From: an uncultured delta proteobacterium | Lineage (GTDB): Bacteria; Desulfobacterota; Binatia; DP-6 | Assembly: GCA_963815115.1 (NCBI GenBank) | Contig: CAWFFN010000008.1 | Span: forward strand, 576,001 to 640,000 | Direction: 5' to 3' | Length of the DNA stretch: 64,000 nucleotides | Shown: in pieces, positions 26,504-35,807 of the stretch | Layout of the letters: each line of letters begins with the position of its first letter | Numbering within the stretch: position 1 is the stretch's first letter | Translations under genes and position numbers: made by a program | Notes under the pieces: generated by a model | The model's database searches: none | What the model saw: the letters and a program-made list of their open reading frames with translations, nothing else | What the model was told of the DNA's origin: nothing

Positions 26504-27373
26504 ATGCGTCGCGCATGCCTCGCGCTCTGCGTGGCCGCGATCTGCGCGGCCTGCTCCGGGAAGAAGCCCCTCGTGCCCGCCGATCAGCTGTGGGCACAGG
26601 GCAACGAGGCCATGCAGGACGAGGCGTACGACGTCGCCGTCCAGAACTACAAGCGGCTCCTCGACAGCTATCCCTTCGATCCCAACACCGAGGAAGCGGA
26701 GCTCAAGATCGCGGAGGCGTACTTCAACGCCCAGCGCTACCCGGAGGCCATCGCCTCGTTCGGCGACTTCGAGCGCATGCACCCGACGAGCGACAACCTG
26801 CCCCAGATCGAGTACCGCCGCGGCATGGCGTACCTCGCCCAGCACCGCTCGAGCGATCGCGACCAGCAGGCGATCAAGAACGCGCTCGAGTCGTTCCGCA
26901 ACATCGTCGAGCGCTACCCCGGCACACCGTGGGCGGCGCGCGCCGGGCTGCGGGTCCGCGAGTGTCGCGAGGATCTGGCCGAGCACGACGCCGACATCGC
27001 GGCGTTCTACCTGCACCGCGGCAGCCTGCGCGCCGCCGAGTCTCGCCTGCGCGGGATGCTGACGGACTACCCGGATACCGAGGCCACGGCCCGCGCCCTC
27101 GACACGTTCGCCAAGCTGTACGCCTCGCGCGACGAGCCGGAGGAGGCCAACCTCGCCCTCGCCACGCTCGCGCGCTATCACCCCGAGAGCCCGCTCGGCG
27201 TCGACGCCCGCCAGCAGCTCGGCGCGCTCGACCCGGCGCAGGGCCAGGACCCCCTGCCCGTGCTCGTCGCGCGGATCGACGAGATGCGTACGCAGGCGGA
27301 CCGCGAGAGGGTCCCGAAGACCGTGTCGGCGTACTCCGATCGCCCTGGCATGCCGGGCGGCGCCCGCTACTGA
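26504..27373 (+). CDS. bamD: Outer membrane protein assembly lipoprotein BamD
   Basis: Lipobox AAC; TPRs with YPF, FERMHP, DRDQ, YP-T-W and LAEHD..IA.FY pattern. Confidence 0.9.
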   Translation: MRRACLALCVAAICAACSGKKPLVPADQLWAQGNEAMQDEAYDVAVQNYKRLLDSYPFDPNTEEAELKIAEAYFNAQRYPEAIASFGDFERMHPTSDNLPQIEYRRGMAYLAQHRSSDRDQQAIKNALESFRNIVERYPGTPWAARAGLRVRECREDLAEHDADIAAFYLHRGSLRAAESRLRGMLTDYPDTEATARALDTFAKLYASRDEPEEANLALATLARYHPESPLGVDARQQLGALDPAQGQDPLPVLVARIDEMRTQADRERVPKTVSAYSDRPGMPGGARY

Positions 27374-27407
27374 GCGGGCCAGCGCCGCGTGGCCGGCGTG
27401 TCGCGGT

Positions 27408-27437
27408 TTGACACGCCTTCGCGATCCGAGATACCAC
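27408..27437 (+). promoter_or_regulatory. Possible sigma70 promoter for the riboswitch operon
   Basis: Perfect TTGACA at 27408-27413; the -10 box is weak. Confidence 0.35.
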
Positions 27438-27461
27438 CCTGCGTAGAGAAGAGACGACAAA

Positions 27462-27580
27462 CCCCATCCAGAGTGGCGGAGGGTCCGGCCCAGCGAAGCC
27501 ACAGCAACCGGCCCGTGCGGGGCGCGGTGCTAATTCCGACGCGAGGTTTGGCTGGTGAGAGCCGCCCGCGAAAGATGAGG
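27462..27580 (+). ncRNA. SAM-I (S-box) riboswitch aptamer
   Basis: CATCCAGAG..GGAGGG..GGCCC..GAAGCC.CAGCAACC..GGTGCTAATTCC..GAAAGATGAG consensus with pairable P1-P3; upstream of sulfur-metabolism genes. Confidence 0.92.
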
Positions 27581-27637
27581 ATCGCACGCTGGTGAGAGCC
27601 CTCCCCCTACCGTCGGTGGGGGAAGAGATCACCGAGC

Positions 27638-28384
27638 ATGCGCCCCAGCCGATCGACACGCCCTGACCTCGAGGATGCTCGCGTTCTGGTCGTCGGCGTC
27701 GGAGGACTGGGATCGCCGGCCGCGATGGCGCTCGCCGAGGCGGGCGTGGGTACCGTCGGCCTGGTCGACCCGGATCGGGTGGAGCCGTCGAATCTCCACC
27801 GCCAGCCGCTCTACACCGATGCCGACGTCGGGCTGCCCAAGGTGGACGCGGCCGCCGCCCGGCTCCGCGCCGGTCATCCGCGCCTCCGGGTCGAGACCGC
27901 GGCCGTGCGCTTCGGTGCCGGCTCGAGCTCCCTGCTCGCTGGCTTCGACGTCGTCCTCGACGGCACCGATTCCATCGGCGCCAAGTTCGACGTCAACGAC
28001 GCGGCGATTGCCGCGCGCGTTCCGCTCGTCCACGCCGGCGCCATCGGCTGGCAGGCGCAGCTGCTCACCGTCCTGCCGGGCCGCAGCGCCTGCTATCGCT
28101 GTCTCTTCGAGGAGCCCCCGCCAGCGGACGAGGTGCCGTCGTGTCAGGAGGCCGGCGTCCTCGGTCCCGCCGTGGTGTTCGCCGGCAGCGTGCAGGCCGC
28201 GGAGGCGATCCGCCTGCTCACGGGGGCGGCGCCGGCGTTCGCGGACCGGCTGCTCGCCATCGATACCCGCACCGGAAGCTGGCGGCGCATCGCGGTGACC
28301 CGCCGTCTCGACTGCCCCGCCTGTGGGACCGTGCATCAGGAGACCATCGCGCCCAGGAGCGCGCAAAGGAGTGTAGCGAGATGA
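27638..28384 (+). CDS. MoeB/ThiF E1-like adenylyltransferase (catalytic motifs intact, N-terminal RxxRQ helix absent)
   Basis: GVGGLG, SNLHRQ, PKV, DGTDS, CYRC, SCQEAGVLGP, CPAC. Confidence 0.92.
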   Translation: MRPSRSTRPDLEDARVLVVGVGGLGSPAAMALAEAGVGTVGLVDPDRVEPSNLHRQPLYTDADVGLPKVDAAAARLRAGHPRLRVETAAVRFGAGSSSLLAGFDVVLDGTDSIGAKFDVNDAAIAARVPLVHAGAIGWQAQLLTVLPGRSACYRCLFEEPPPADEVPSCQEAGVLGPAVVFAGSVQAAEAIRLLTGAAPAFADRLLAIDTRTGSWRRIAVTRRLDCPACGTVHQETIAPRSAQRSVAR

Positions 28385-29634
28385 GCCACGCAAAAGGGCT
28401 CAGATGCCGCGAGTGCGGCGCCGAAACCCCCATCGCCCCCCTGCACGTCTGCGAGACCTGCTTCGGCCCGCTCGAGGTGCAGTACGACTACGACGCGATC
28501 CGGCGCGTGCTCACGCGCGAAGCCATCGAGCGCCGGCCGCGCAACCTGTGGCGCTATCGCGAGCTGCTCCCGATCGAGGGCGAGCCGCAGATCGGGCTGC
28601 ACTCGGGCTTCACCCCGCTCGTCCGGGCCGAGCGCCTCGCCGCCGTGCTGGGCGTGAAGGAGCTCTGGGTCAAGGACGACTCGGTCAACCACCCCACCTT
28701 CTCGTACAAGGACCGGGTGGTCTCGGTCGCCATCTCGAAGGCCATCGAGTTCGGCTTCGACACGGTGTCCTGCGCCTCCACCGGCAATCTCGCCAACTCC
28801 GTCTCCGCGCACGCCGCGCGTGCGGGACTCAACTGCTTCATCTTCATCCCGGACGACCTCGAGCAGGGCAAGGTGATCGGCTCGACCATCTACGGCCCCC
28901 GCGCCATCGCGATCCGGGGCAACTACGACGACGTCAATCGGCTGTGCAGCGAGATCGCCGACAAGTACGGCTGGGCCTTCGTCAACATCAACGTGCGCCC
29001 GTACTACACGGAGGGCGCGAAGACCTACGGCTTCGAGGTCGCCGAGCAGCTCGGCTGGCGCCTGCCGCAGCACATCGTCGTGCCGGTCGCCGGGGGAACG
29101 ATCCTGCCCAAGGTGGCGAAGGCGTTCCGCGAGCTCCGCGACCTGGGCCTGGTCGACGGCGATTTCAAGATCTACGGCGCGCAGGCGGCGGGGTGCGCTC
29201 CGGTCGTCCAGGCGCTCCACAAGCACACCGACCTGATCAGTCCCGTCAAGCCGGCGACCATCGCCAAGTCGATCGCCATCGGCAACCCGGCCGACGGCTA
29301 CTACGTGCTGAAGGCGGTGCGCGAATCGGGAGGCTGGGGCGAGTCGGTCACCGACGCGGAGATCGTCGAGGCCATCCAGCTCCTGGCGCGGACCGAGGGC
29401 ATCTTCACGGAGCCGGCGGGCGGCACCACCGTGGCCGTCACCCGCAAGCTCATCGCGCAGGGCCGCATCCCGCGCGACGAGTCGATCGTGATCTGCGTGA
29501 CCGGCAACGGCTACAAGACGCTCGAGGCCGTGATCGACAGCGTCGAGCAGCCCTCGCGCATCCCGGCGCGGCTCGCCGATTTCGACGCCCTCTACGCCCA
29601 GCTCCGCGGCGGGCTCGAGGCGTCCGCGGGCTAG
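28381..29634 (+). CDS. thrC: Threonine synthase-like PLP enzyme (candidate MetM-type carrier-dependent homocysteine synthase)
   Basis: N-terminal CxxC..CxxC, PTFSYKDR (PLP Lys), ASTGN, EGAKT, TGNGYK; next to a MoaD-like carrier under a SAM riboswitch. Confidence 0.85.
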   Translation: MSHAKGLRCRECGAETPIAPLHVCETCFGPLEVQYDYDAIRRVLTREAIERRPRNLWRYRELLPIEGEPQIGLHSGFTPLVRAERLAAVLGVKELWVKDDSVNHPTFSYKDRVVSVAISKAIEFGFDTVSCASTGNLANSVSAHAARAGLNCFIFIPDDLEQGKVIGSTIYGPRAIAIRGNYDDVNRLCSEIADKYGWAFVNINVRPYYTEGAKTYGFEVAEQLGWRLPQHIVVPVAGGTILPKVAKAFRELRDLGLVDGDFKIYGAQAAGCAPVVQALHKHTDLISPVKPATIAKSIAIGNPADGYYVLKAVRESGGWGESVTDAEIVEAIQLLARTEGIFTEPAGGTTVAVTRKLIAQGRIPRDESIVICVTGNGYKTLEAVIDSVEQPSRIPARLADFDALYAQLRGGLEASAG

Positions 29635-29687
29635 CGCCGACGCCCCCCGCGCCGGTACAACCAGCAGTCGACAGGAGGAACGAACGC

Positions 29688-29963
29688 ATGACCCAGGTGA
29701 GAGTGCCCACGCCCCTGCGCAAGTTCACGGGCGGCTCCGAGGCCGTCGAGGCAGACGGCACGAACGTGACCTCGGTCCTTGCCGATCTCGATCGGCGCTA
29801 TCCCGGCATCCGGGAACGCATCTGCGACGAATCCGGCCAGGTGCGCCGCTTCGTCAACATCTTCGTCAACGGTGAGGACATCCGCTTCCTCCAGCACCTC
29901 GAGACCCCGGTGAAGGCAGGCGACGAGCTGTCGATCGTCCCGGCCATCGCGGGAGGCCGCTAG
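29688..29963 (+). CDS. Ubiquitin-like sulfur carrier protein (MoaD/CysO family) ending IAGG-R
   Basis: AGGAGG RBS; VRVPTPLR, RRFVNIFVNGEDIRFL and SIVPAIAGGR. Confidence 0.93.
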   Translation: MTQVRVPTPLRKFTGGSEAVEADGTNVTSVLADLDRRYPGIRERICDESGQVRRFVNIFVNGEDIRFLQHLETPVKAGDELSIVPAIAGGR

Positions 29964-29975
29964 AGCGGAGCGTGC

Positions 29976-30959
29976 ATGGCGTCGCGCGTCGCCCAGGCGG
30001 GTTGCTCCGCCGGTCCGACGGCGCCGGGGGAGGGACCGCTCGTCTCGCCCTCGGTGCTCGAGCTGATCGGCAACACGCCGCTGGTGGAGATCCAGCGGGT
30101 GCGCGAAGGAGTCCCGCCCGGCGTCCGCCTGTTCGGCAAGATCGAGGGCTTCAACCCTGGCGGCTCGGTGAAGGACCGGCCCGCGCTCAGGATGATCCAG
30201 GAAGGCATCCGCCAGGGCAGGCTCGTGCCGGGCAAGACCATCCTCGACTCGACGTCGGGCAACACCGGCATCGCGCTCGCCATGATCGGCGCCGCGCTCG
30301 GCTACCCGGTCGAGCTGGTGATGCCGGCCAACGTGAGCCGCGAGCGCAAGCAGATGGTGGCGGCGTTCGGCGCCCGGGTCGTGTTCAGCGATCCGCTCGA
30401 GGGCAGCGACGGCGCCATCCGCCTCTGCCGCGAGGTGCTCGCGGCCGATCCCGAGCGCTACTTCAAGCCCGACCAGTACAACAACGAAGCCAACCCGCTC
30501 GCCCACTACGAGACCACGGGACCGGAGATCTGGCGCCAGACCGACGGCCGGGTGACGCACTTCGTGGCCGGCATCGGCACGGGCGGCACGATCATGGGCA
30601 CGGGTCGCTTCCTGAAGGAGCAGAATCCGGCCGTCCAGGTGATCGCGGCGGAGCCGGAGGACGCGTTTCACGGCCTCGAGGGGCTCAAGCACATGGAGAC
30701 CTCGATCGTGCCGGGCATCTACCACGAAGCCGAGCTCGACCTGAAGCTCGGCGTCGGCACCGACGAGGCATACGACATGGTGTACCGCCTCGGGCGCGAG
30801 GAGGCGCTGCTCGTCGGCCAGTCGTGCGGCGCCGCCCACGTCGCCGCGTTGCGGGTGGCGCGCACGCTCGACGAGGGCACGATCGTCGTGCTCTTCGCCG
30901 ACTTCGGGGACCGCTACCTCTCGACCAACCTCTGGCTCGGCTGGCAGCGCCAGGGATGA
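29976..30959 (+). CDS. cysM: Cysteine synthase family PLP enzyme (CysM-like)
   Basis: IGNTPLV, NPGGSVKDR, TSGNTG, GIGTGGT, DRYLST. Confidence 0.9.
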   Translation: MASRVAQAGCSAGPTAPGEGPLVSPSVLELIGNTPLVEIQRVREGVPPGVRLFGKIEGFNPGGSVKDRPALRMIQEGIRQGRLVPGKTILDSTSGNTGIALAMIGAALGYPVELVMPANVSRERKQMVAAFGARVVFSDPLEGSDGAIRLCREVLAADPERYFKPDQYNNEANPLAHYETTGPEIWRQTDGRVTHFVAGIGTGGTIMGTGRFLKEQNPAVQVIAAEPEDAFHGLEGLKHMETSIVPGIYHEAELDLKLGVGTDEAYDMVYRLGREEALLVGQSCGAAHVAALRVARTLDEGTIVVLFADFGDRYLSTNLWLGWQRQG

Positions 30960-31240
30960 GCCGCGGCGGCAGCACATCGTCGCGCCGCAAGGCGGGCACC
31001 AAGGCGCGGGTGAAGCTCTACCTCACCTACCCGAGCCGTCTGGTGCGCGAGCCCCTCATCTACCACCTGAGCCGCAACTTCGACCTGATCTTCAACATCC
31101 GGCAGGCGAGCGTGAACGAGGACATCGGCATCATCGCCATCGAGCTCGACGGCGCCGACGAGGCGATCGAGCGCGGCATCGCATGGCTCCGCGAGCGCGG
31201 CGTCACCGTCGAGCCGATCGAGAAGAACGTCATCGAGTGA
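30956..31240 (+). CDS. Stand-alone NIL domain protein
   Basis: EPLIYHLSRNFDLIFNIRQASV..G..IEL.G..IERGIAWL...GV.VEPIE, the NIL/MetN-C2 pattern. Confidence 0.88.
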   Translation: MSRGGSTSSRRKAGTKARVKLYLTYPSRLVREPLIYHLSRNFDLIFNIRQASVNEDIGIIAIELDGADEAIERGIAWLRERGVTVEPIEKNVIE

Positions 31241-31800
31241 TGCTGAGCGACGCGGACATCGAGCGCTGGAGCCGCCAGATCATCCTCCCGGAGGTCGGCG
31301 GCCGAGGGCAGCGCAGGCTGATGACGGCACGCGTGTCGGTCGTGGGCGACGGGCCGGTCGCCGCCTGCGCGACCGATCTGCTCGCGCGCGCGGGGGTCAC
31401 CGCCGAGCGCTCCTCCGGGCAGCTCGACGACGCCGAGCTCGTGGTCGATCTCGGCCCGGGGAAGAGCGCCGGCACCGCCCTCGCCCGGCGCGCGCTCGAG
31501 CGCGGCGTGCCGCTGGTTCGCGGCCGATGCTGGAGCGCCGGCGGTACGGTGGACACGCTGGTCGGCCGGCCCTGCGGCCTCTGCCTGTCCGGGGCGGCGC
31601 TCCCGTCCGGCCCGACCGGCGAGGCCCTGGCGGCGCCGGCGGCACAGGCGGTGGCCGCGCTCGTCGCGACCGAGGTCCTGCGCGTGCTCCTGATCGGAGC
31701 GCCTGTCGGCCGGCGACAGCTGGTCGATCTCGACGGCGGCCGCTTCTCGTGCGAGGCGCTCGACTCGGCCGGCTGTGCCAGCTGCGGAGCGCGGGCGTGA
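31240..31800 (+). CDS. Degenerate ThiF/MoeB-like protein (inactive adenylation domain)
   Basis: ERWSRQIILPEVGGRGQRRL N-terminus and two CxxC motifs retained; nucleotide-binding Gly loop degenerate (GDGPVA); SNLxRQ segment and the conserved Cys absent. Confidence 0.8.
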   Translation: MLSDADIERWSRQIILPEVGGRGQRRLMTARVSVVGDGPVAACATDLLARAGVTAERSSGQLDDAELVVDLGPGKSAGTALARRALERGVPLVRGRCWSAGGTVDTLVGRPCGLCLSGAALPSGPTGEALAAPAAQAVAALVATEVLRVLLIGAPVGRRQLVDLDGGRFSCEALDSAGCASCGARA

Positions 31801-33002
31801 CCGGCGGCGAGCGGCTCGAGGCGAAGCTCGACATCGCGGCCCGTGGTGTGCGCATCGACGAAAGCGCGCGTGGGCTCGCCCCGGAATCGGAGCCGCTGCC
31901 GCAGGCCCTCGAGCTCGTCATCGACGACGAGGCGCACGTCAGCGCGCCGGTCGACGCGGCCGGCACGGCGCCCGCCGCCCTGCTGCTGATCGGAGACGCG
32001 GGCCGCTACTACCTGGTCGATCGGGAGGCGAACGGCGGTGCGCGGCTCGAGGTGGGTGTGCCGACGTTGCCGCGCTTCTACGGCCGCCGCACCGCCTCGG
32101 GCATGCCGATGCGGCGGGTCGCGAGCGTCGTCGGGAGCCACCTGCTCGTCCATCCCTCCGGGGCGTGCGGCTTCAGCGTGCAGGGCTCGCCGTGCCGCTT
32201 CTGTCTCGAAGGCGCACGGGCCGAGCGTGGCGCGGTGGCGACGGTCGCGGACGTGGTCGAGGTCACCCGCGTCGCCTTCGAGGAAGGCGTCGCCGAGTCC
32301 GTGTATCTGAACAGCGACGCCTTCGAGGCCGAAGACGGCGGCCTCGCCTTCGTGGCGCCGTACGTCGAGGGCATCCGGAGGCATTTCGACACGCTGGTGG
32401 CCGTGCAGGTACATCCCCCGCGCTCCGACCGCTGGATCGACTGGGCCTACGCGCTCGGCGTCGACGCCCTCAGCTTCAACCTCGAGATCTACGACCCCGA
32501 GCTGCTCGACCGCTGCTGCATCGGGCGCATGCGCTACATCGGCCGCCAGCGCTACCTCGATGCCCTGGCTCACGCGGCGCGCATCTTCCCCAGCGGCACG
32601 GTGTGGAGCGATCTGGTGCTCGGCCTCGAACCCCCCGGGTCGACCATGGAAGGCATCGACGCACTCGCCGCGCTCGGCGTCGTGCCCGTGGTGACGGCAC
32701 GCCGGGCCCTGTCGACGCCCGGGGAGCGTCTGGAAGGGCCCGTCGTGGGGCACGTGCTCGCCCATCTCTACGGTGCGGTGCACGACCGCGGCATCAACAT
32801 GGGCTGGATCCGCGACCTGGTCGGCGGCGTCGCGCCGCTCGAGGCGCGCGCGCACGGCGGCAAGGGCGCCGGACTCGCCACCGCCATGGAGAACATCACG
32901 CGCTCGCGGCTGGGGGCGCTCGCCGCCCGCGGGCTCGCCCGCTTCCGCCGCCGGCTCCGCGTGAAGAGCATCGGCGACTCGTTCGACGCCGCACACCTCT
33001 GA
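31797..33002 (+). CDS. Radical SAM protein with CX8CX2C motif (distant MSMEG_0568-like/BioB-like)
   Basis: PRFYGRRT.SG.P, CGFSVQGSPCRFC, SFNLEIYD, SDLVLGLE. Confidence 0.8.
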   Translation: MTGGERLEAKLDIAARGVRIDESARGLAPESEPLPQALELVIDDEAHVSAPVDAAGTAPAALLLIGDAGRYYLVDREANGGARLEVGVPTLPRFYGRRTASGMPMRRVASVVGSHLLVHPSGACGFSVQGSPCRFCLEGARAERGAVATVADVVEVTRVAFEEGVAESVYLNSDAFEAEDGGLAFVAPYVEGIRRHFDTLVAVQVHPPRSDRWIDWAYALGVDALSFNLEIYDPELLDRCCIGRMRYIGRQRYLDALAHAARIFPSGTVWSDLVLGLEPPGSTMEGIDALAALGVVPVVTARRALSTPGERLEGPVVGHVLAHLYGAVHDRGINMGWIRDLVGGVAPLEARAHGGKGAGLATAMENITRSRLGALAARGLARFRRRLRVKSIGDSFDAAHL

Positions 33003-33006
33003 GCCC

Positions 33007-34485
33007 GTGGGGGAGCCAGCTACCCGCCGCGTCCCCGGGGACGTCCTCGTCGACACGCGCCCGTTGTGGCGCATTCTCGCCGGACGCACCTTCCGCCCGC
33101 TGGTGCTGCTCACCGGCGCGGCGCTGTTCCTGCTGATCCGCGCCCTGCCGCCTTTGCCGGGACTCGAGCCGGGCGGGCAACGCGCGCTCGCCGTCTTCGT
33201 CATCTGCCTCGTCTACTGGGTGACGAACGTTCTGCCGCTCATGGTGACGAGCCTCCTCGCCATGGTGCTGCTGCCGCTCACCGGCGTGCTCCAGACGAAG
33301 GACACCTACGCGCTGTTCGGCAACGAGGCGGTATTCTTCATCCTGGGCGCGTTCCTGCTCGCCGCCTCCCTCATGCGCTGCGGGCTCTCCACCCGCATCG
33401 CGGTCGCCATCCTGCGTCGCTTCGGCCACACCCCGCGGACGCTCCTCCTGTCCTTCTTCCTCATGAACGCCTTCCTCGCCTTCTTCATGTCCGAGCACGC
33501 GGTCGCGGCCATGACCTTCCCGATCACGCTCGAGATCGCGTCCGTCCTCGGCTTGCAGCGCCAGCGCAGCAGCTACGGCCGTGCCCTCTTCATCTCGATG
33601 GCGTGGGGAACGCAGATCGGCGGCATCGCCACGCTGCTGGGCGGCGGACGGGCGCCGCTCGCCATCGGCATGCTGCGCGAGTCCACGGGGCAGGGCTACA
33701 CCTTTCTCCAGTGGACGCTGGCGGCGTGGCCGATCGTCGCGGTGCTGCTGGTCGCCGGCTGGTTCATCATCACGTGGTTCTTTCCCATCGACATCGAGTC
33801 GGTGAGACGGGCGGACGCGGTGATCGAGGAGAAGGCGCTCAAGATGGGCCGCCCGTCGGTGCGCGAGCGCTCCATCGGGCTGATCATGCTCGTCACGCTC
33901 ACTGCCTGGATCGTGGGTGGCGAGGAGTTCGGGCTGGCGACCATCGCGCTGGGCGCGGTCGTGGTCATCTTCGTCGCCGGGCTGCTCGAGTGGCGCGACC
34001 TCGAGCAGTACGTGAACTGGGGCGTGCTCCTCATGTACGGCGGCGCCATCGCGCTGGGCTCGGCGCTGCACAAGTCGGGTGCCTCGGTGTGGATCGCCTC
34101 CCTCACCGTGAGCCACTGGGCGCGGACGCCCGCGCAGGTCGTGGCCATCCTCTCGGGCATCGGCATCGTGCTCACGGAGGCCATGAGCCACTCGGCCGTG
34201 GTCGCTCTCCTGATGCCCGTCGCGCTCGGCATCGCGCAGCAGTACGGCATGGACCCGCGGCTGATGGCGCCCGTGATCGCCCTCCCCTCCGGGCTCGCCT
34301 TCACGCTCCCCGTCGGCACGCCGGGGAACGCCATCGCCTACTCCTCGGGCTACCTCCGGCTGCGCGACATGCTGCTGCCGGGCTCCCTGATGGTCGTCAT
34401 TGCCTGGGCCGTGTTCAACCTGGTGGTGCGCTACTACTGGCCCCTGATCGGGCTCTCGCTCGCCCCGGTGGCTGCAGCAGGTTGA
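33007..34485 (+). CDS. DASS/SLC13 anion permease (likely sulfate/thiosulfate uptake)
   Basis: Many TMs; [44 protein letters not shown]; upstream of sat. Confidence 0.88.
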
Positions 34486-34550
34486 GCCCAGGGCCGCTTT
34501 CCCCTAGGTTTCTCCGTTCTCACTTCCTCGACGCGAAAGGACCATCCGAC

Positions 34551-35807
34551 ATGCCCGATCTGATTCCTCCGCACGGCGGCCTCACCGAGCCCGTGAACTG
34601 CATGGTATCCGCAGCCGACGAGGCAGCGCTCGTCGCCGAGGCGGCGAAGCTGGTGCAGGTGCCCGTCTCCGACGCCGATCTCTCCAGCGTCTATCGCTTC
34701 GGCGATGGCGGCCTCTCGCCCCTCACCGGCCCGATGGACGAGGCCGCATACCACCGCGTCCTCGACGAGGCGGTCATCGAGCACCAGGGTCGGAAGTACG
34801 CCTGGACCATTCCGATCGCGTTTCCCGTCACGCGCGAGCTCGCGGGCCGCATCCGCCGCGGCGATTCGGTGGCGCTGGTGAACGGCGACACCGTCGTCGC
34901 CACGCTCGCGGTCGGCGACGTCTTCGCGTGGGACAAGCAGCGCTACATCCGGAGCGTCTACCAGACGGAGCGCACCGACCACCCCGGCGGCGACATGGTG
35001 CTCAAGGGCGACGCCGACAAGACGCACCTGCTCGGCGGCACGCTGCGGGTGCGCCCGCAGCCGAAGCACCCGAAGTTCGGCGCCTACGTCCGCTCGCCGC
35101 GCGAGGTGCGGGCCCTGCTGCGCGACAAGGGCTGGCAGCGCGTGGTCGCGTTCCAGACCCGCAACCCGTTGCACCGCGCCCACGAGTACGCCCTCGTCTA
35201 CGGCCTCGAGACGCTGCTGCGCCAGGGACACGACGCGGGCGCCTGCCTGAATCCGCTGATCGGCGAGACCAAGGGCGACGACGTCCACGCCGAGGTCCGC
35301 ATGGCCACCTACGAGGCGCTGATCCGCACGCGTGCCCTGGGCGACGGCGACAGCGACCAGGCGCTGTGGGGTCCGCGCGGGGAGTCCGTGCCCGATCGCG
35401 TGATCCTGCTCGGGCTCGACATCAAGATGTTCTACGGCGGTCCGAACGAGGCGGTGATGCACGCCATCTACCGGCAGAACTTCGGCTTCACGGACCTGAT
35501 CGTGGGGCGCAAGCACGCCGACGCCCCCTTTCACGACGGCAGCGCCATCTGGGGCGACTTCGACGCCCAGGAGCGGTTCTCGACGCTGCGAGGCGACCTC
35601 GAGATCCGCCCGCTGAAGGTCGGCTTCGCCGCCTACTACGAGTCCATCGGCCGCGTCGACCTGACCGACAATCATCCCGACGAGAAGCCGGTGTCGATCT
35701 CCGGCAAGGACGTCCGCAAGGCGCTGCTCGAGGGCCGCGAGGTCGACCCGCGCATCATGCGCCCGTCCACCTCGCACATCCTGGCGGCCGCGATGCGGGA
35801 GGCGTGA
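34551..35807 (+). CDS. sat: Sulfate adenylyltransferase (Sat type)
   Basis: [38 protein letters not shown]. Confidence 0.93.

Follow-up and report, generated by a model that had tools for sequence, protein, structure and literature searches.

Bacterial E1-like enzymes of sulfur-carrier metabolism, MoeB, ThiF and MoeZ among them, are usually treated as symmetric homodimers. The pairing of an inactive with an active adenylation subunit is regarded as a hallmark of the eukaryotic E1 enzymes and, lately, also of the fused bacterial protein BilD; in the eukaryotic heterodimers, the inactive subunit gives an N-terminal arginine to the single ATP site. Here we describe two genes, A and B, of an operon for sulfur assimilation in an uncultured soil bacterium of the class Binatia, within a 64,000-nucleotide stretch of DNA (the window; positions 576,001–640,000 of contig CAWFFN010000008.1, assembly GCA_963815115.1; G+C content of around 71% over its whole length). 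From the anatomy of the genes, their homologies, their conservation and their co-occurrence in related genomes, we propose, with a probability of roughly 55%, that A and B code for two dissimilar subunits of an asymmetric E1-like enzyme that adenylates the MoaD-like sulfur carrier of the operon for its cysteine synthase (CysM) and ThrC/MetM-like enzyme. The two chains would form a physical heterodimer, with Arg12 of B acting in trans on the ATP site of A.

That an inactive subunit can complete an active one is known already from the eukaryotic E1 enzymes, from yeast Tcd1–Tcd2 and from BilD. As set out in the accessible part of a 2026 study (PMC13139853), Tcd1–Tcd2 is a ThiF-family heterodimer, the dehydratase of cyclic N6-threonylcarbamoyladenosine (ct6A) in tRNA, and species with a single gene form symmetric homodimers; the inactive Tcd1, which lacks an ATP-coordinating arginine, lends Arg59 as an arginine finger to its active partner Tcd2, and Tcd2 returns none. 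The same text equates Tcd1 Arg59 with ThiF Arg11 and MoeB Arg14, reports little effect of Tcd1 R59A and states, with a citation of Lake 2001, that neither the MoeB finger nor the ThiF finger is essential. For BilD of the BilABCD defence system, the available portion of the source describes a fused inactive domain that supplies Arg9 'like these eukaryotic E1s', and counts all known bacterial E1-like proteins, MoeB and Cap2 included, as homodimers, BilD excepted (10.1101/2023.09.26.559546). A review, in the section accessible to us, likewise presents MoeB and ThiF as homodimers and lists Gly41, Arg73, Lys86 and Asp130 of MoeB as conserved adenylation residues (PMC12355090). We found no description in the literature of a two-gene bacterial sulfur-carrier E1; in the accessible text of Iyer et al. 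2006 (PMC1779556), a term search gave neither 'heterodimer' nor 'threonine synthase'.

The two genes lie on the same strand:

27638–28384, + strand: gene A ('MoeBs'), an N-terminally truncated, otherwise complete ThiF/MoeB-type adenylation subunit of 248 residues
31240–31800, + strand: gene B ('ThiFdeg'), a degenerate ThiF/MoeB paralogue of 186 residues

Gene A matches the Pfam family ThiF (PF00899) with 230.9 bits (cut-off 28.1) over residues 10–227, covering positions 17–237 of the 238 in the profile and missing the first 16 or so. In alignment to the solved structures, its residue 10 corresponds to residue 28 of E. coli MoeB and residue 25 of ThiF, and it is colinear with MoeB 28–248 with no insertion (E = 6.5e-40 to MoeB and 1e-45 to ThiF). 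A preliminary description of this DNA had credited the gene with all adenylation motifs, and these are indeed present—GVGGLG, SNLHRQ, K68, DGTD, SCQEAG and two CxxC—and invariant in 44/44 aligned A sequences, every catalytic residue included; invariant positions in that alignment are G20, G22, L24, G25, S51, N52, L53, R55, Q56, K68, D108, D111, C152, C155, C169, C226 and C229. What gene A lacks are the N-terminal helices that carry the trans arginine in the homodimers (MoeB Arg14, ThiF Arg11). The absence of this RxxRQ helix, and the exclusion of a longer N terminus, had also been claimed and hold on inspection of the upstream DNA: an in-frame TGA (27593–27595) lies 14 codons 5′ of the ATG at 27638, with no ATG, GTG or TTG between, and the alignment begins only at MoeB 28. 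A purine-rich, Shine–Dalgarno-like GGGGGAAGAG at 27618–27627 (+), around 10 nt 5′ of the ATG, is a putative ribosome-binding site of the gene. By NCBIfam, gene A stays below the equivalog cut-offs for MoeB, ThiF, UbaA and MoeZ, its best score being 216.3 bits against 449 (NF006444), followed by 189.9 against 275.25 (TIGR02356, ThiF) and 152.2 against 376.55 (TIGR02355, MoeB).

The truncation is common to the relatives of gene A. Among its 120 nearest homologues (at least 62% identity, 215–279 residues), 117 have GxGGxG, the median number of residues preceding it is 19, and none has a correctly placed RxxRQ, the one such string found, at residues 2–6, being out of register. At 12/12 orthologous loci, a stop codon lies no more than 47 codons 5′ of GxGGxG, and RxxRQ is absent. 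At four loci (L009, L010, L043 and L080), GC-rich inverted repeats followed by a run of T (for example, GGGAAGGGGTTTTTTGTTGCC-ATG) stop just a few bases short of the A start. The terminator of the preceding gene, bamD, apparently abuts the start codon of A and so leaves no room for a longer protein.

Gene B begins MLSDADIERWSRQIILPEVGGRGQ and was described from the outset as the mirror image of A, a characterization that Pfam and profile alignment to MoeB and ThiF sustain. It retains the N-terminal RxxRQ helices, β1, the dimer helix and the two CxxC motifs (PCGLC and GCASCG), and it has lost every ATP-binding motif (the Gly loop, SNLxRQ, the lysine and DxxD) as well as the catalytic Cys. Pfam ThiF matches gene B with 38.0 bits (cut-off 28.1) over residues 11–53 only (profile positions 2–44). 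A profile built from the B family spans MoeB 4–249 end to end (E = 1.1e-16), and also ThiF (around 1e-16), with one deletion of around 60 residues that takes out the DxD/SNLxRQ/Lys segment; in addition, other residues stand at the positions of DxxD and the catalytic Cys. In these alignments, B Arg12 corresponds to MoeB Arg14 and to ThiF Arg11. By its sequence, gene B is a degenerate member of the ThiF/MoeB/HesA family and not a family enzyme.

Conservation within B is concentrated at the N terminus. Of 174 B homologues at E ≤ 0.001, the best 120 were analysed: RxxRQ falls within the first 40 residues in 118, the other two being N-terminal fragments, and a GxGGxG loop in 0/120. In an alignment of 44 B sequences reaching down to 23% identity, only R12, Q13, G20, Q24 and G52 are invariant, and the mean top-residue frequency is 0.82 for residues 1–27, 0.61 for residues 28–55 and 0.37–0.51 for the blocks beyond 55. 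The best-kept block of B (residues 1–27, MoeB ~3–29) is the segment missing from A, which starts at MoeB 28. Across 29 related loci, RxxRQ is present in 28/29, SRQ in 29/29 and an open B frame in 29/29; the B proteins there vary from 163 to 257 residues, with deletions of differing place and size, and both CxxC motifs have been lost in five. Gene B is retained even in relatives whose A drops to around 35% identity to that of the window. Whether the RxxRQ of B would prove conserved or decaying in its orthologues had been named as a point on which the proposal turned, and with Arg12 and Gln13 kept in 44/44 sequences the answer is conservation.

Several searches around B returned material that does not enter these counts. 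A GxGGxG pattern match in the B of L080 lies in a GGRGQ segment and is not a nucleotide loop. When the B profile was run against the whole phylum, N termini of ordinary MoeB proteins (profile positions 1–115 only) dominated the matches, and no counts were drawn from them; likewise, a class tally of 361/401 genomes (E ≤ 1e-12) mixes B with full-length MoeB N termini and is not a count of B. Seven genomes flagged as unpublished figure in that tally only, and no analysed locus comes from them. A B-profile search of proteins of 448–2000 residues gave three matches and no fusion of B to A or to either of the proteins encoded beside B, a NIL-domain protein and a radical S-adenosylmethionine (SAM)-like protein. 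The search for longer B relatives also brought up a 674-residue metagenome protein (P0241) with a ThiF domain and a RuBisCO large-chain domain (PF00016).

Co-occurrence of the truncated A with B, the next element of the proposal, was followed through several samples of genomes. In the nearest-locus sample, 32 of the 80 returned loci were examined, the closest of which carry the record titles of Candidatus Binatia or 'delta proteobacterium' metagenome-assembled genomes (MAGs). A near-full-length B match is present at 14 of the 32, and 12 of these 14 had enough 5′ flank; at all 12, A, the carrier gene and the CysM gene are present and A is cut by an upstream stop and lacks RxxRQ (L061 with frame breaks). 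Among the 18 further loci, L012, L026 and L028 have the same pair, L039 and L017 have B on a short contig or without A nearby, and the remaining 13, from other phyla, have a single full-length MoeB. In the class sample—20 regions from 20 genomes of the same class, spanning about a dozen families—both genes are found in the same order in 18 of the 20 regions, and one contig was too short; L154 is from the same genome as L015. Genome G746 has B alone at the locus and a truncated A-type gene around 930 kb away. Five genomes from families so far unsampled were then added, together with G495. Of five genomes without a match at the strict threshold, three have the pair (by coordinates and profile coverage only) and two (99% and 83% complete) have neither gene. 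Two MAGs call for separate mention. One labelled Limnocylindria (L012) carries the whole operon, BamD included, at 61–87% identity to the window, and we take it as probably mis-binned and do not count it as a sign that the operon occurs in a further phylum; the other, labelled Nitrospirota, carries an unlinked truncated A and a B.

The examined genomes fall into three states:

State 1: one full-length MoeB (IERYSRQ) at the position of A and no B in the genome (G418, G291 and G434; 3/3, from three families)
State 2: A full-length (RYERQ or RYARQ) and B near-intact, with SNLHRQ kept (G076, locus L152, and G495, locus L170; one family)
State 3: A truncated and B degenerate, with RxxRQ retained (the window, together with 33 linked loci, 2 unlinked pairs and 3 genomes assigned by coordinates)

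State 3 thus comprises the window and 38 other loci or genomes. The B of L152, in state 2, also retains DSSD and a Cys, and G463 (L153), from the same family as the state-2 pair, is in state 3. Among the examined loci and genomes there is no truncated A without B, and in each examined genome with a degenerate B, a truncated A is present too; the three state-1 genomes, which lack B, have a full-length MoeB. The expected co-occurrence of the two forms is therefore what was found. Dozens of independent assemblies show an identical pattern of truncation in A and degeneration in B, which is thus not a product of chance or of assembly error.

Two observations on reading frames were made in the same loci. 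At L010, L061, L150 and L151, ThrC, CysM, MoaD or A is split over two or three frames, most likely through assembly indel errors. At L037, L083, L040 and L045, all from other phyla, a stop-to-stop frame of 370–375 residues runs through a MoaD-like carrier and then a full-length MoeB with no stop between, the carrier ending ...AIAGG where the printed stretch reaches that far; these frames look like carrier–E1 fusions, in which cleavage would be needed to free the GG end.

In the careful tree (44 sequences), A and B fall on opposite sides of one branch with support of 100/97, their sub-clades are congruent, the end branches of B are around twice as long as those of A, and the truncated A sequences, taken together, have the full-length A of L152 as their sister (97/92). 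A larger, quick tree (51 sequences) places the single-copy state-1 genes sister to A with support of 98, which identifies them as orthologues of A. The quick tree does not resolve where the full-length A genes fall within A, and the N terminus of A may have been lost once or several times. At L152, A and B share 50% identity, and either shares 43–45% with the rhodanese-fused MoeB of the window genome. In a tree of the relatives' own MoeB paralogues, B forms a separate paralogue group, and neither this nor its top fold matches indicate common descent with SAE1 or NAE1. The sequences point to an independent duplication of a MoeB gene within one bacterial class. That the Binatia relatives preserve every step of the path from a symmetric MoeB-type homodimer, encoded by one full-length gene, through two intact paralogues and complementary loss (of the arginine-finger helices in the active copy and of the ATP site in the other) to an obligate asymmetric E1, seems to us plausible, if a shade short of probable. 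In some lineages, the inactive subunit is down to around 150–165 residues without the zinc site, which suggests a minimal donor of an arginine finger.

The predicted structure of B is confident (mean predicted local distance difference test (pLDDT) 90.9, predicted template modelling score 0.87) and comprises N-terminal helices at residues 4–12 and 20–29, a shortened Rossmann-like sheet, a long helix at residues 128–152 and a C-terminal hairpin. Its best fold matches are ThiF (TMq 0.77), Uba4 and MoeB (TMq 0.77), followed by UBA5, MccB, TruD and PaaA; SAE1 and NAE1 are not among the matches listed. We modelled one complex, from the A alignment, the B alignment and ATP, in three runs, as the preliminary description had recommended for the heterodimer. 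The interface score ipSAE is 0.91 in all three runs, against 0.00, 0.00 and 0.41 for the controls; this mark was attained by 58/80 solved complexes and 2/110 mismatched pairs, a calibration that is rough here given our own alignments and the ATP ligand. At least 95% of contacts are common to the runs, the pLDDT of either partner is at least 83, and the 128–132 confident contacts are mostly helix–helix. The predicted interface is of the MoeB type, B 129–171 packing against A 169–217, and places B 5–19 (R9, R12 and Q13) against A 27–36 and A 50–57, the latter being the SNLHRQ phosphate loop. Interface residues of B are more conserved than its other residues (0.60 versus 0.49, Mann–Whitney p = 0.003). 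On the conservation of RxxRQ, on co-occurrence and on the modelled heterodimer alike, the outcome favoured the interpretation in the preliminary description. Because the MoeB and ThiF homodimers have been solved, the pass expresses a likeness to them and is not proof of binding or of a mutual preference.

The two genes sit in a tight row of genes on the + strand that runs from BamD through ATP sulfurylase (26504–35807). Besides A and B the row contains:

26504–27373, + strand: BamD/YfiO-like outer-membrane lipoprotein gene (Pfam YfiO, E = 4.6e-42)
28381–29634, + strand: ThrC-family pyridoxal-phosphate enzyme with an N-terminal Cys4 zinc-ribbon-like segment (NCBIfam NF006050, Pfam PALP)
29688–29963, + strand: ThiS/MoaD-fold sulfur carrier (SAMP1/MoaD-like) with the end ...AIAGG-R (Pfam ThiS, NCBIfam SAMP1)
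29976–30959, + strand: CysM/CysK-family cysteine synthase (TIGR01136 cysKM, TIGR01138 cysM)
30956–31240, + strand: stand-alone NIL-domain protein (Pfam NIL, 60.6 bits)
31797–33002, + strand: variant radical-SAM-like protein (NCBIfam NF045502 variant_rSAM, 142.1 bits, cut-off 125)
33007–34485, + strand: DASS-family anion (sulfate-type) symporter (TIGR00785, 275.6 bits; Pfam Na_sulph_symp)
34551–35807, + strand: ATP sulfurylase, or sulfate adenylyltransferase (Pfam ATP-sulfurylase and PUA_2)

BamD is the conserved 5′ neighbour of gene A in most related loci and marks its 5′ boundary. Stop and start codons overlap in four pairs, A/ThrC (ATGA), CysM/NIL (ATGA), NIL/B (TGATG) and B/radical-SAM (GTGA, the start of the latter being GTG). 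A, the carrier and CysM accompany B at every linked locus with enough flank, whereas the NIL, ThrC and radical-SAM genes do not. The state-1 loci L166 (G291) and L165 (G418) have a MoeB–ThrC–carrier–CysM row with no B, radical-SAM or DASS gene within the 18–20 kb fetched, and L166 has a NIL gene without B, so NIL does not depend on B. In related loci, the radical-SAM gene, mostly together with the DASS transporter, occurs only 3′ of a B gene, and many B loci are without it; in the window protein the cysteines are arranged as C-x8-C-x2-C (CGFSVQGSPCRFC) in place of CxxxCxxC. Ten proteins, those of nine operon genes and BamD, were scanned with Pfam, and an E2/UBC domain is found in none of them. 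No RNA run covering 27400–33000 was found among the 20 runs listed, all of which are DNA contigs, at no more than 0.21 of sampled words.

The ThrC-family enzyme scores 315.6 bits against the NF006050 threonine synthase model (cut-off 303) and is a candidate MetM-like homocysteine synthase, sequence being unable to tell a homocysteine from a threonine product. CysM lies above the cysKM cut-off (353.6 bits, cut-off 344.15) and below that of cysM (377.2 bits, cut-off 394.2). The carrier scores 70 bits with Pfam ThiS and 66.3 bits with SAMP1 (cut-off 60); its C-terminal Gly-Gly is kept in 28/30 related loci, where the tails are GG plus Arg in 13/30, a GG end in 10/30 and other in 7/30. An extra residue after the GG would mean that trimming is needed prior to activation. 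The genome has a single Prok-JAB (JAMM) match (65.7 bits), on another contig (G000:C9:265589-265975), as a candidate associate of the operon. It also has a second, full-length MoeB on a different contig (G000:C7:193174-193878, L001), with an N-terminal rhodanese domain and RYSRH in place of RYSRQ, which is likely to be an E1 of molybdenum cofactor synthesis or of general sulfur transfer.

On the basis of these features, we propose the following mechanism. A would carry the sole working adenylation site (the Gly loop, Arg55 of SNLHRQ, Lys68, Asp108/Asp111, Cys169 and the Cys4 zinc site), having lost both of the N-terminal helices with which each chain of a MoeB or ThiF homodimer contributes to the ATP pocket of its partner. 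B would be an inactive copy in which the fold and the MoeB-type dimer surface persist and in which selection mainly keeps the two N-terminal helices with Arg12 (the counterpart of MoeB Arg14 and ThiF Arg11) and Gln13. These helices may close the ATP site of A in trans, the reciprocal site of B being defunct and receiving nothing from A. So completed, the enzyme would adenylate the C-terminal glycine of the MoaD-like carrier, from which, in the GG-R forms, the extra residue would be trimmed first, probably by the JAMM protease of the genome. The carrier thiocarboxylate could then feed CysM, for cysteine, and the ThrC/MetM-like enzyme, for homocysteine, with sulfur supplied as sulfate that is imported and activated by the products of the downstream DASS and Sat (ATP sulfurylase) genes. 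For this pathway role, homology and gene order provide the suggestion.

Several points weigh against the heterodimer. In the window, B is translationally coupled to the NIL and radical-SAM genes and not to A, and in two genomes A and B are unlinked. In A, conservation at the interface does not exceed that of the remaining residues (0.66 versus 0.62, p = 0.23). The score of the A:B model may echo a memory of the solved MoeB and ThiF homodimers, the controls having been unrelated proteins and not paralogues. In both MoeB and ThiF, the arginine finger is reported to be non-essential, so A could work without the arginine of B. The genomes, moreover, are related to one another, and very few events may underlie the pattern, so that the 39 or so cases are not independent. 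The binding and activity of an A:B enzyme, its need for the arginine included, are proposed from sequence and a structural model.

These points lend some weight to other explanations, the best of which is that A is active by itself, as a homodimer that has no arginine finger, and that B has a non-catalytic task of its own, for instance to hold the carrier or to act as partner of the NIL or radical-SAM protein. The start and stop of B overlap precisely those two genes, the radical-SAM gene is confined to B-bearing loci among the loci examined, and the finger is reported to be dispensable in the available text on Tcd1–Tcd2 (PMC13139853). Inactive, partner-binding E1-like domains also occur in heterocyclases, and TruD is among the fold matches of B. 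In the heterocyclase TruD, the E1-like domain is not known to act other than in binding. However, NIL is missing from at least 7 of the loci with B and the radical-SAM gene from at least 14, and NIL occurs without B in L166; nor does a separate role account for the exact match between the segment that B keeps and the one that A has lost, or for the full-length A-type gene of the B-less lineages (3/3 cases). We consider this explanation unlikely, at something like a fifth of our belief set against the whole, and the asymmetric adenylating enzyme remains the reading that we prefer.

Somewhat less probable again is a heterodimer that is real but in which B is structural or regulatory, serving the solubility, stability or dose of A, with its N terminus as a packing element and no catalytic arginine. 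According to the accessible part of the Tcd study, the fingers of MoeB, ThiF and yeast Tcd1 are catalytically non-essential and Tcd1 is required for the solubility of Tcd2 (PMC13139853); the predicted A:B interface is also large, with its 128–132 confident and mostly helical contacts. Against such a role, no side chains with chemistry other than Arg12 and Gln13 are invariant in 44/44 B sequences, packing would not demand exactly these two, and the model puts both at the phosphate-binding loop of A. That B is a functionless, decaying duplicate, and the truncated start of A an artefact of annotation or assembly, is very improbable. In its favour, every catalytic motif of B is gone, its length ranges over 151–257 residues and, in many of the relatives, which are MAGs, genes nearby have broken frames. 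The conservation of B, however, contradicts decay, its frame being open in 29/29 loci and kept where A is down to around 35% identity, with invariant residues and a confident model (pLDDT 90.9), and the upstream stop of A recurs in 12/12 loci, several with GC-rich inverted repeats and a T run before the start.

The elements that are new here are the occurrence of such a pair in the sulfur-carrier metabolism of bacteria, encoded by two genes; the reciprocity of the losses, the active subunit having shed its own N terminus; the extreme reduction of the inactive subunit; and the survival of intermediate states in related genomes. If the asymmetric enzyme is real, E1 asymmetry can arise repeatedly through duplication and complementary loss; if the relatives do preserve every step of its origin, the Binatia pair would be an independent, bacterial re-run of the event behind the inactive/active architecture of eukaryotic E1 enzymes, as well as a tractable example of a neutral ratchet locking in a heterodimer. 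Its natural intermediates would allow tests of the trans arginine, called dispensable in the literature and invariant here, and of the N-terminal helices. Both genes would then be needed to reconstitute or to annotate cysteine and methionine biosynthesis in widespread uncultured soil bacteria, for which the present labels from annotation pipelines are 'MoeB' for the first and 'hypothetical' or 'ThiF family' for the second.

Among the described systems, E. coli MoeB–MoaD and ThiF–ThiS (PDB 1JW9, 1JWA, 1JWB, 1ZUD and 1ZFN) are of the same fold and sequence family as A and B and act on a like type of substrate, a ThiS/MoaD-fold carrier with a GG end, their trans Arg14 and Arg11 corresponding to Arg12 of B. 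They are symmetric homodimers with two active sites, helices and core on each chain, whereas in A and B these are split over two chains and one site is possible. In gene content, the closest systems are CysO–CysM–Mec–MoeZ of Mycobacterium and MetO–MetM–Mec–MoeZ of Streptomyces, the latter listed in the accessible part of GapMind 2026 as the MetO carrier, MetM homocysteine synthase, Mec and MoeZ, with Hasebe 2024 cited (PMC13759103). As far as those sources describe them, a MoaD-like carrier, CysM, a ThrC-family enzyme and an E1-like activator adjoin as they do here, and a JAMM (Mec-type) hydrolase is present in this genome too, on another contig. The activator in the CysO and MetO routes is one MoeZ chain with a rhodanese domain; here it is split as A and B, and A has no rhodanese domain.

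Tcd1–Tcd2 resembles the proposed arrangement in using an inactive ThiF-family paralogue as the donor of the finger. It differs in being eukaryotic and membrane-anchored, with a tRNA substrate, and in that the core of Tcd1 is near-complete, compared with the loss of around 60 residues in B; Tcd2 lacks the arginine, yet the accessible text reports no N-terminal truncation of it, unlike A. BilD, again as far as its source could be consulted, is bacterial and combines one inactive with one active adenylation domain, a single ATP site, a donated Arg9 and a Cys4 zinc site. It is one chain, in which the inactive and active adenylation domains are fused, with a mobile Cys domain and an E2 and with conjugation of a ubiquitin-like protein in phage defence as its function, whereas A and B are two genes of sulfur metabolism.

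The preliminary description had likened the pair to SAE1/SAE2 and APPBP1/UBA3. As a statement of family membership this does not stand, because B is closest to ThiF, MoeB and Uba4 and not to SAE1 or NAE1. Unlike SAE1/SAE2 (SUMO) and NAE1(APPBP1)/UBA3 (NEDD8), the A/B operon is without a catalytic-Cys domain insertion, a ubiquitin-fold domain or an E2; the product of an A:B enzyme would be a thiocarboxylate for metabolism and not a conjugate, and it is the active subunit, A, that has lost its own N terminus. As a functional analogy the comparison holds: in A and B, as in the SUMO and NEDD8 E1 enzymes, an inactive and an active adenylation subunit are encoded by separate genes.

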